A stretch of 64,000 nt of DNA, from the NCBI GenBank assembly GCA_949538735.1, contig CATGLK010000002.1, positions 46,145 to 110,144 on the forward strand. Direction: 5' to 3'. The stretch is from an uncultured Clostridia bacterium. Its GTDB lineage: Bacteria > Bacillota > Clostridia > TANB77 > CAG-508. The notes under the pieces were generated by a model. The model ran no database searches and had not been told where the DNA came from. It saw nothing but the letters and a program-made list of their open reading frames with translations. Below are positions 31,086 to 31,715 of the stretch, in pieces. How positions within the stretch are numbered: the stretch's first letter is position 1; every line of letters starts with the position of its first letter. Position numbers and translations under genes: made by a program.

Positions 31086-31715
31086 ATGAACATATTACTT
31101 ATATTTTTTGCTTTACCAATAGCAACAATAATAATATCAATAGCATTACAAAAAATTCTAAAATGTCCACCATTAGTCGCAGCAGTTATATTTGCAATAT
31201 TTTTAATTGTTACGTTTGTAATAAATAACATAAATTTCTTAGTTGCAGCACTTATTTATGCAATATTAGCATTTATCACAGCAGCAATTGTATGTCTTAT
31301 TTGTAGGTTGATAGAGCGTTTCTGTGATAATGATAATGACAGTGATAGCTGTGGCTGTGGTTGCGGAAGAAGCGGTTGTGGTTGTAGAAGAAATAGAAGA
31401 TGTAACTGCCAAAGAGATAGAGATAATTCAAATGATTTGCTTAGAATAAGTAGCAATTGTGGAAATTCTAATAATGGTGATTTGATTACAATATCAAGTA
31501 GTGGTTGCAATGGAGTGAATAACGATTTGTTAACTATTAGTTCTAGTTGTCAAAATAGAAACAATAACAATTGTGGTTGTGATAATGACAATGATAATTC
31601 AAATTGTGGCTGTGGTTGCAATAATAGGAATGGTGTAATGGCTAGAATAAATGTTATTCCAAATACTAATGGCAATGGCTGTGGTCAAATTTCAGGCTGT
31701 TATAGAAGAAGATAA
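31086..31715 (+). CDS. membrane protein (3 TM) with Cys/Gly/Asn/Arg-rich repetitive C-terminal tail
   Basis: TM N-terminus, then CGCGCGRSGCGCRRNRRCNC and three ~13-aa repeats (NDLLRISSNCGN / GDLITISSSGCN / NDLLTISSSCQN). The tail is locally GC-enriched. Confidence 0.5.
   Translation: MNILLIFFALPIATIIISIALQKILKCPPLVAAVIFAIFLIVTFVINNINFLVAALIYAILAFITAAIVCLICRLIERFCDNDNDSDSCGCGCGRSGCGCRRNRRCNCQRDRDNSNDLLRISSNCGNSNNGDLITISSSGCNGVNNDLLTISSSCQNRNNNNCGCDNDNDNSNCGCGCNNRNGVMARINVIPNTNGNGCGQISGCYRRR

Follow-up and report, generated by a model that had tools for sequence, protein, structure and literature searches.

What is the long cysteine-rich tail of a small clostridial membrane protein for, and does the protein form a metal-handling pair with the permease encoded next to it, as an earlier note made from the letters of the sequence had proposed? 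The gene that raises these questions lies at positions 31086..31715 (+) of a 64,000-nucleotide (nt) stretch, hereafter the window, of contig CATGLK010000002.1 from an uncultured Clostridia bacterium (assembly GCA_949538735.1, positions 46,145 to 110,144, forward strand). We find that the gene is real and conserved, that its tail is coding sequence under purifying selection and not junk, and that the gene is stably linked to truA upstream and just loosely to the ArsP_2 permease downstream. The product is an ordinary conserved hypothetical protein with an unusual tail, that is, a new tail variant on the known uncharacterised DUF2651 family; what the tail may do is argued below in graded terms.

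The ATG-started open reading frame (ORF) encodes 209 amino acids (aa) and has a GGAGAG ribosome-binding site upstream. Its N-terminal third is a DUF2651 membrane anchor (residues 1-76; 31086..31313, +), recognised by Pfam, AlphaFold2, conservation, and charge distribution: residues 5-74 match positions 1-70 of the 73-position PF10852 model at 32.3 bits (cut-off 25; E=1.6e-7), bearing out the earlier guess of a DUF2651-like N-terminus, for which a hidden Markov model (HMM) search had been proposed as the check; the homologues P0034, P0046, P0112, and P0156 score 30.8-35.8 bits on the same model. The three transmembrane (TM) helices that the earlier note had seen are likewise present in the AlphaFold2 model from an alignment of 111 sequences, at residues 3-25, 28-46, and 49-82, with a predicted local distance difference test (pLDDT) score of 74-85, and are in keeping with the DUF2651 match. 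A homologue search of 5.8 billion proteins gave 995 matches; the best 120 of these, from which the architecture was read, are nearly all labelled DUF2651, measure 160-250 aa, and cover about 100% of the query, and the source names of the homologues are 'hypothetical protein' or none. In the literature library that was searched, DUF2651 was mentioned by no paper, and ybeF/yuiB gave nothing relevant. The likeness to PF10852, a family of small membrane proteins of Bacillota, thus extends over the anchor and its three TM helices, whereas the 90-170-aa Cys/Asn/Arg-rich tail is in no Pfam model, the 73 positions of PF10852 describing the anchor alone.

The tail itself (residues 77-209, 133 aa) contains 18 Cys, 29 Asn, 15 Arg, 1 Tyr, 1 Phe, and no His, with five CxC-type pairs; at 13.5% Cys, compared with 1.25% across the 51 ORFs of 150 aa or more in the window, it is 11-fold enriched, and the maximum in any other 133-aa stretch of those ORFs is 5 Cys. 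It opens with a Cys/Arg/Asp-rich linker, CGCGCGRSGCGCRRNRRCNC (residues 77-114; 31314..31427, +), delimited by the family alignment; continues with three repeats of the form N-[DE]-L-L-T-I-S-S-x-(G)-C-x-N (residues 115-159; 31428..31562, +), which in the window protein read SNDLLRISSNCGN, GDLITISSSGCNG, and NDLLTISSSCQN and are backed by alignment, shuffles, and model; passes into a second Cys cluster with a CxC pair (residues 160-180; 31563..31625, +); and ends in a C-terminal module, x-A-R-I-N-V-I-P-N ... N-G-R-T-G ... G-C-Y-R-R-R (residues 181-209; 31626..31712, +), the last two segments again being defined by alignment. The strings quoted in the earlier note, CGCGCGRSGCGCRRNRRCNC and CGCDNDNDNSNCGCGCNN, are indeed in this ORF together with the three repeats, but the repeat length it gave as about 13 aa is in fact 15 aa, the motif starting at residues 118, 133, and 148. 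When the tail was shuffled 20,000 times, no shuffle matched the repeat motif three times. We considered a recent tandem duplication of the DNA and ruled it out, as Tandem Repeats Finder detected no 45-nt period and just two short TGATAA runs; because the DNA copies are too diverged for that program, the repeats are old and maintained as protein sequence. Also discarded as a signal was the local GC enrichment that had been claimed for the tail, which is unremarkable: the peak over the tail is 0.373 (31250-31399), whereas cdaA reaches 0.38 (29825-29974).

Is such a tail more than low-complexity sequence? The earlier note had allowed that a tail highly variable and frameshifted in relatives would be junk, and we looked at conservation in family alignments of 38 and 111 members and in a genomic comparison set made up of the window and 80 related loci, 81 gene copies altogether. 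The full-length ORF is intact in 75 of the 81 copies; tail length changes between relatives in frame, without frameshifts; and the ratio of nonsynonymous to synonymous substitution rates (dN/dS) of the tail is 0.075-0.154 at dS 0.46-0.58 against the closest diverged relatives (L002-L004), with a median of 0.42 for deeper pairs. The condition named for junk therefore fails. The anchor is the best-conserved part, with a median identity to the window protein of 75% for the TM domain and 53% for the tail. Within the tail the linker ranges from 14 to 102 aa across the family and always has at least 2 Cys; the family-mean composition is 10.5% Cys and 2.9% Phe, Tyr, and Trp combined. Eight Cys are alignable, among them two conserved CxC pairs (C106/C108 and C163/C165): C98 is found in 87% of members, C106 in 80%, C108 in 76%, and C125 in 86%, and in the C-terminal half C141 is found in 68%, C163 in 88%, C165 in 95%, and C205 in 67%. 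The most conserved part of the tail is the C-terminal module, in which P192 and N193 are invariant and which persists in members that have no LLTISS repeats. Repeat number does vary among relatives, as had been anticipated, from 0 to 5 LLTISS copies, with 3 copies in 86 of the 120 members. Two close relatives of 167-168 aa, P0006 and P0007 (72-77% BLASTP identity), have an in-frame deletion that has taken away the first LLTISS repeat and the greater part of the Cys/Arg linker, and P0006 is present on 11 contigs; repeat number is thus shown to be naturally polymorphic.

The tail family is confined to a single lineage of gut Clostridia. Used by itself as a profile against 1.84 billion cluster representatives, the tail matched 51 clusters at 50% identity, and in nearly all of them the tail lies at residues ~80-200 of proteins of about 200 aa with the same anchor, or the sequences are fragments; the host genomes are metagenome-assembled genomes of uncultured gut Clostridia, including Clostridium sp. 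CAG:343, CAG:575, and 28_17. In P0145 and P0162 the tail stands behind unrelated soluble N-termini, by eye Clp_N-like and amidohydrolase-like, and these two proteins are probably assembly or gene-calling chimeras.

On which side of the membrane would the tail reside? Averaged over the family, Lys and Arg residues number 2.0 in loop 1 and 3.1 in the 16 residues that follow TM3, against 0 at the N-terminus and in loop 2, so by the positive-inside rule the N-terminus is predicted to be outside and the C-terminus inside, and the tail is probably on the cytoplasmic face of the membrane. AlphaFold2 gives the tail a pLDDT of 31-43 with the 111 sequences, with weak, low-confidence beta strands on the repeats, and of 30-43 over the two runs with 38 and 111 sequences; such low values are the expectation for a metal-dependent region in its apo form or for a disordered one.

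Our preferred account of the tail, held tentatively and with somewhat less than even confidence, is that it is a membrane-tethered cytoplasmic thiolate module, soft-metal or thiol-redox based, with scaffold strands and a basic contact end. A specific role for the thiols is favoured because a residue as rare as Cys is retained at such a high frequency across the family, eight positions being kept in 67-95% of members. The tail alone would be largely unstructured; it would fold or self-associate around soft metal ions, whether as Zn(II), Cu(I), or a cluster of Fe-S type, or would alternatively rely on thiol redox chemistry; its scaffold would be formed by the LLTISS and INVIPN strands, and the basic C-terminal end would contact lipids or a partner. 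Several observations weigh against this account. About half of the tail Cys are not positionally conserved, and C205, the last conserved one, is missing in one third of members; the tail is 26% Asn, a level that low-complexity drift typically produces where genomes are AT-rich; it matched no Pfam family at E<=10, metallothioneins and zinc fingers included, and no PDB sequence in a profile search (E<=1), a single-sequence search of the PDB returning just a chance match at E=1; it stays unfolded in AlphaFold2, which usually folds canonical Cys4 zinc modules without their metal; the topology is based solely on the positive-inside rule, and the residues that directly follow TM3 include acidic ones (mean 2.5 Asp and Glu); and the putative co-transcription with truA, described below, is based on pattern scans.

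The earlier note had called the tail metallothionein-like, and that description fits the composition (Cys-rich, with CxC pairs and few aromatic residues) but not the sequence family, given the Pfam result. The tail resembles the bacterial metallothioneins SmtA/BmtA and MymT in these compositional respects, and in its low-confidence, unstructured apo prediction and predicted cytoplasmic location; it differs in having no match to their sequence families and no His, SmtA using His ligands, and in being membrane-anchored, with 26% Asn, hydrophobic beta-strand repeats, and a basic end. Classical metallothioneins are also denser in Cys than the 10-13% of this tail. Should the tail indeed turn out to bind metals or to sense redox state, it would be a new membrane-tethered thiolate domain and would give a first functional handle on DUF2651, in abundant uncultured gut Clostridia.

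The most serious competitor to a thiolate module, which we consider rather unlikely though well worth weighing, is a disordered, Asn-rich tail with no role in metal binding, whose strands self-associate or bind a partner, whose YRRR end contacts acidic lipids or a partner, and whose TM bundle is the functional part, the Cys being redox-sensitive thiols or simply tolerated by the composition. It would account for the low pLDDT throughout the tail, for the Asn content and the in-frame indels that change length and repeat number, for the stronger conservation of the TM domain, and for the loss of the C-terminal Cys in some members, and the most conserved elements of the tail (LLTISS, P192, N193, NGRTG, and RRR) are not Cys; what it leaves unaccounted for is that the rarest residue is maintained family-wide at eight positions and in two CxC pairs, and that a dN/dS of about 0.1 among close relatives implies strong constraint over the whole tail. 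A reversed topology would instead place the tail on the cell surface, as an extracytoplasmic stack of 15-aa repeats, like a beta-solenoid, stapled by disulfides or metal. Insect antifreeze beta-helices are built from such short repeats with Cys, and the repeats here are short and regular, with much Thr, Ser, and Asn and one Cys each; their number differs from strain to strain, a frequent trait of surface proteins; the partly acidic segment right after TM3 would also suit an outside location. Yet the distribution of Lys and Arg over the loops argues for the cytoplasm, a tail with about 13 Arg/Lys and an RRR end is unfavourable for translocation without a signal, neither a signal peptide nor a sorting motif is present, most members have just three repeats, and AlphaFold2 predicts no solenoid, so that we judge this reading improbable. 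By far the least probable are a class I holin-like protein and a membrane-anchored precursor of a ribosomally synthesised and post-translationally modified peptide (RiPP), of lanthipeptide type, with cross-linked T-I-S-S-x-C units. With class I phage holins the protein shares three predicted TM helices, an N-out/C-in topology, and a basic C-terminal end, and the spacing S/T-x-x-C resembles lanthionine ring motifs; but the tail is much longer than in those holins and rich in Cys, neither PHROGs (E<=0.1) nor a tblastn search of 50,697 phage records gave a match, the gene belongs to a conserved chromosomal housekeeping block (pdp-cdaA-truA) in every genome examined, and no endolysin, LanB/C/M, or radical-SAM maturase adjoins it in the window. 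Genomic context effectively refutes both.

Context bears equally on the proposal with which we began, that the gene and the ArsP_2 permease form a metal or metalloid pair in which the tail captures As(III), Cu, Zn, or Cd at the membrane and either passes it to the exporter, whose loop CEKEHCHCDHG would take it up, or regulates that exporter. In the window the two genes are on the same strand and 96 nt apart; an ArsP_2 homologue lies at most 5 kb downstream in most of the 80 related loci, with a gap (31 to 3053 nt overall) below 260 nt in about 43 of 69; ArsP_2 also adjoins the gene in the divergent locus L088; the loop is strongly conserved in its clade; and tail and loop, both with many thiolates, would lie on the cytoplasmic side. 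Adjacency within the 80-locus set is, however, little informative and mostly inherited synteny, because the set is one syntenic lineage whose neighbouring genes are 65-90% identical. Between the two genes lie a terminator-like hairpin, GAGCCATT-loop-AATGGCTC (31735-31757), with a T-rich tract (31735..31767, +), found by pattern scan, and a TG-extended promoter-like site, TTTACT-17-TATCAT (31758..31786, +), which matches 9 of 12 consensus positions and is called on that match alone; the hairpin stem is kept in L001-L004 through G-U pairs or compensatory changes, and terminator-like sites occur 3′ of the gene in 23 of 77 loci as against 12 of 231 control pieces. About 26 of the 69 gaps exceed 380 nt and are filled with unrelated genes (0.4-3 kb), and no ArsP_2 was found within 5 kb in L050, L063, L069, and L079 despite adequate flank. 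Among divergent members the downstream gene is YkuD in L081, rpsF-ssb-rpsR in L083-85, AIM24 in L087, and an unrelated gene on the opposite strand in L086, with ArsP_2 next door in L088 only, so that another gene takes the downstream place in 4 of 5 informative divergent contexts while truA stays constant upstream. Homologues of ArsP_2 greatly outnumber those of the gene under study (at least 8000 scored matches as against 995), and in about 10 kb around the gene no ars gene and no ArsR-type or metal regulator was found, the ORFs of ~19.8-43.3 kb having been scanned against Pfam. Obligate or functional pairing of the metal-handling kind suggested in the earlier note is accordingly not supported by these sequence comparisons, and we regard it as unlikely. 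The permease gene probably forms a transcription unit of its own, and its product is probably no obligate partner of the tail protein.

The upstream side is far more stable. The block pdp-cdaA-truA-gene is common to the 80 related loci, cdaA being syntenic in most; truA is also upstream in the divergent L081, L082, L083-85, L087, and L088, and cdaA is kept upstream in the divergent L083, L087, and L088. In the window, a TG-extended promoter-like site, TTGAAA-16-TATAAT (28989..29016, +; 11 of 12, consensus match alone), is a candidate start for a transcript that would run through a hydrophobic small ORF of 42 aa (29114..29242, +; an ORF call that has no Pfam match), the membrane diadenylate cyclase gene cdaA (29263..30195, +; CdaA_N and DAC by Pfam), and the tRNA pseudouridine synthase gene truA (30277..31029, +; by Pfam, the near-universal upstream neighbour) into the gene under study. 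The gap between truA and the gene is 56 nt in the window, with a median of 78 nt across loci, and a strict scan found a terminator-like site between them in none of 73 loci; the gene is most likely the last cistron of this small ORF-cdaA-truA transcript, as far as spacing and signal scans can tell.

CdaA is a divalent-metal-dependent cyclase that makes cyclic di-AMP (c-di-AMP). The constant position behind cdaA and truA would, if the tail is indeed metal- or redox-responsive, point to a link with c-di-AMP signalling; the stronger proposal, that the tail is an undescribed metal-thiolate (or Fe-S or redox) domain, held at the inner membrane face and composed of beta-strand repeats with conserved Cys and CxC ligands between them, which links CdaA, or some other partner in the membrane, to metal or redox status, strikes us as a long way from probable. 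Genes of 39-50 aa are called at the same site upstream of cdaA in L083, L087, and L088, and the product of the 29114-29242 ORF may be a micro-membrane protein that is conserved along with the cdaA operon. In L088 (4190-5136) cdaA is called as two genes, a CdaA_N part of 170 aa and a DAC part of 108 aa, which could reflect a frameshift or a sequencing error. Operons with cdaA in Bacillota typically continue with cdaR-glmM; in the window cdaA is followed by truA, with no cdaR directly downstream. Upstream of glmS (39162-41033, -), Rfam places a glmS ribozyme (RF00234, 88.6 bits) at 41084-41236 (-).

The permease (31812..32666, +) belongs to the ArsP_2 / NF037962 'arsenic efflux protein' family, scoring 77 bits on PF11449 (cut-off 32.5) and 330.2 bits on NF037962 (cut-off 100; positions 1-287 of 287). 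It is the two-repeat protein with a CEKEHCHCDHG loop that the earlier note had described: its halves are homologous (27% identity over 118 aa, E=3e-10), each has a G-x-x-P-x-C motif, and the loop between them is conserved as C-E-x-E-H-C-H-C-[ED]-H-G in this clade, the homologue search having returned close relatives only. The neighbour is like the ArsP organoarsenical exporters (Transporter Classification 2.A.119) in its PF11449/NF037962 match and its two homologous repeat units; it differs in having a single P-x-C Cys per half, whereas a vicinal Cys pair has been reported for ArsP, and in that its scanned surroundings hold no ars operon. The family takes its name from Campylobacter jejuni ArsP. 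That protein was the first ArsP to be functionally characterised, most later members of the family being annotated merely as 'permease' (PMC7176098). The family is built of two homologous units of multiple transmembrane segments with a hydrophilic loop between them, and PF03773 marks the members of subfamily 2.A.119.1 and PF11449 the 2.A.119.2 member analysed (PMC7176098). We wish to stress that the 'arsenic efflux' label on the neighbouring permease is no evidence for a metal-handling operon. Its surroundings are housekeeping and sporulation genes (those for HtrA, RNase HII, a ClpB-like protein, BofA, and BofC, and glmS), together with pilin-like and TraG-like genes; and a scan of the whole window with Rfam at gathering thresholds found no riboswitch near the gene or the permease, the matches being the glmS ribozyme and one tRNA, away from both.

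Beyond the permease the window contains a direct duplication of about 370 nt (32720-33090 and 34149-34520), with segments 96% and 81% identical at a spacing of about 1430 nt. Both copies run into pilin-like genes, one of which has an N-terminal methylation motif, and LamG-type domains follow; in the second copy the ORFs 34355-34495 and 34437-34817 overlap, a possible frameshift. A TraG/VirD4-like coupling protein (TraG-D_C, T4SS-DNA_transf) is encoded at 35985-38315 (-), and in L011 a 780-aa gene resembling it follows ArsP_2 directly. Beyond the permease the DNA looks variable and may derive from a mobile element. Finally, the window encodes a BofC-like protein at 19815-20414 (+) and a BofA-like protein at 38827-39237 (+), and L083 has a gene with a SipL domain; because of these genes, the sequence suggests that the lineage forms spores.

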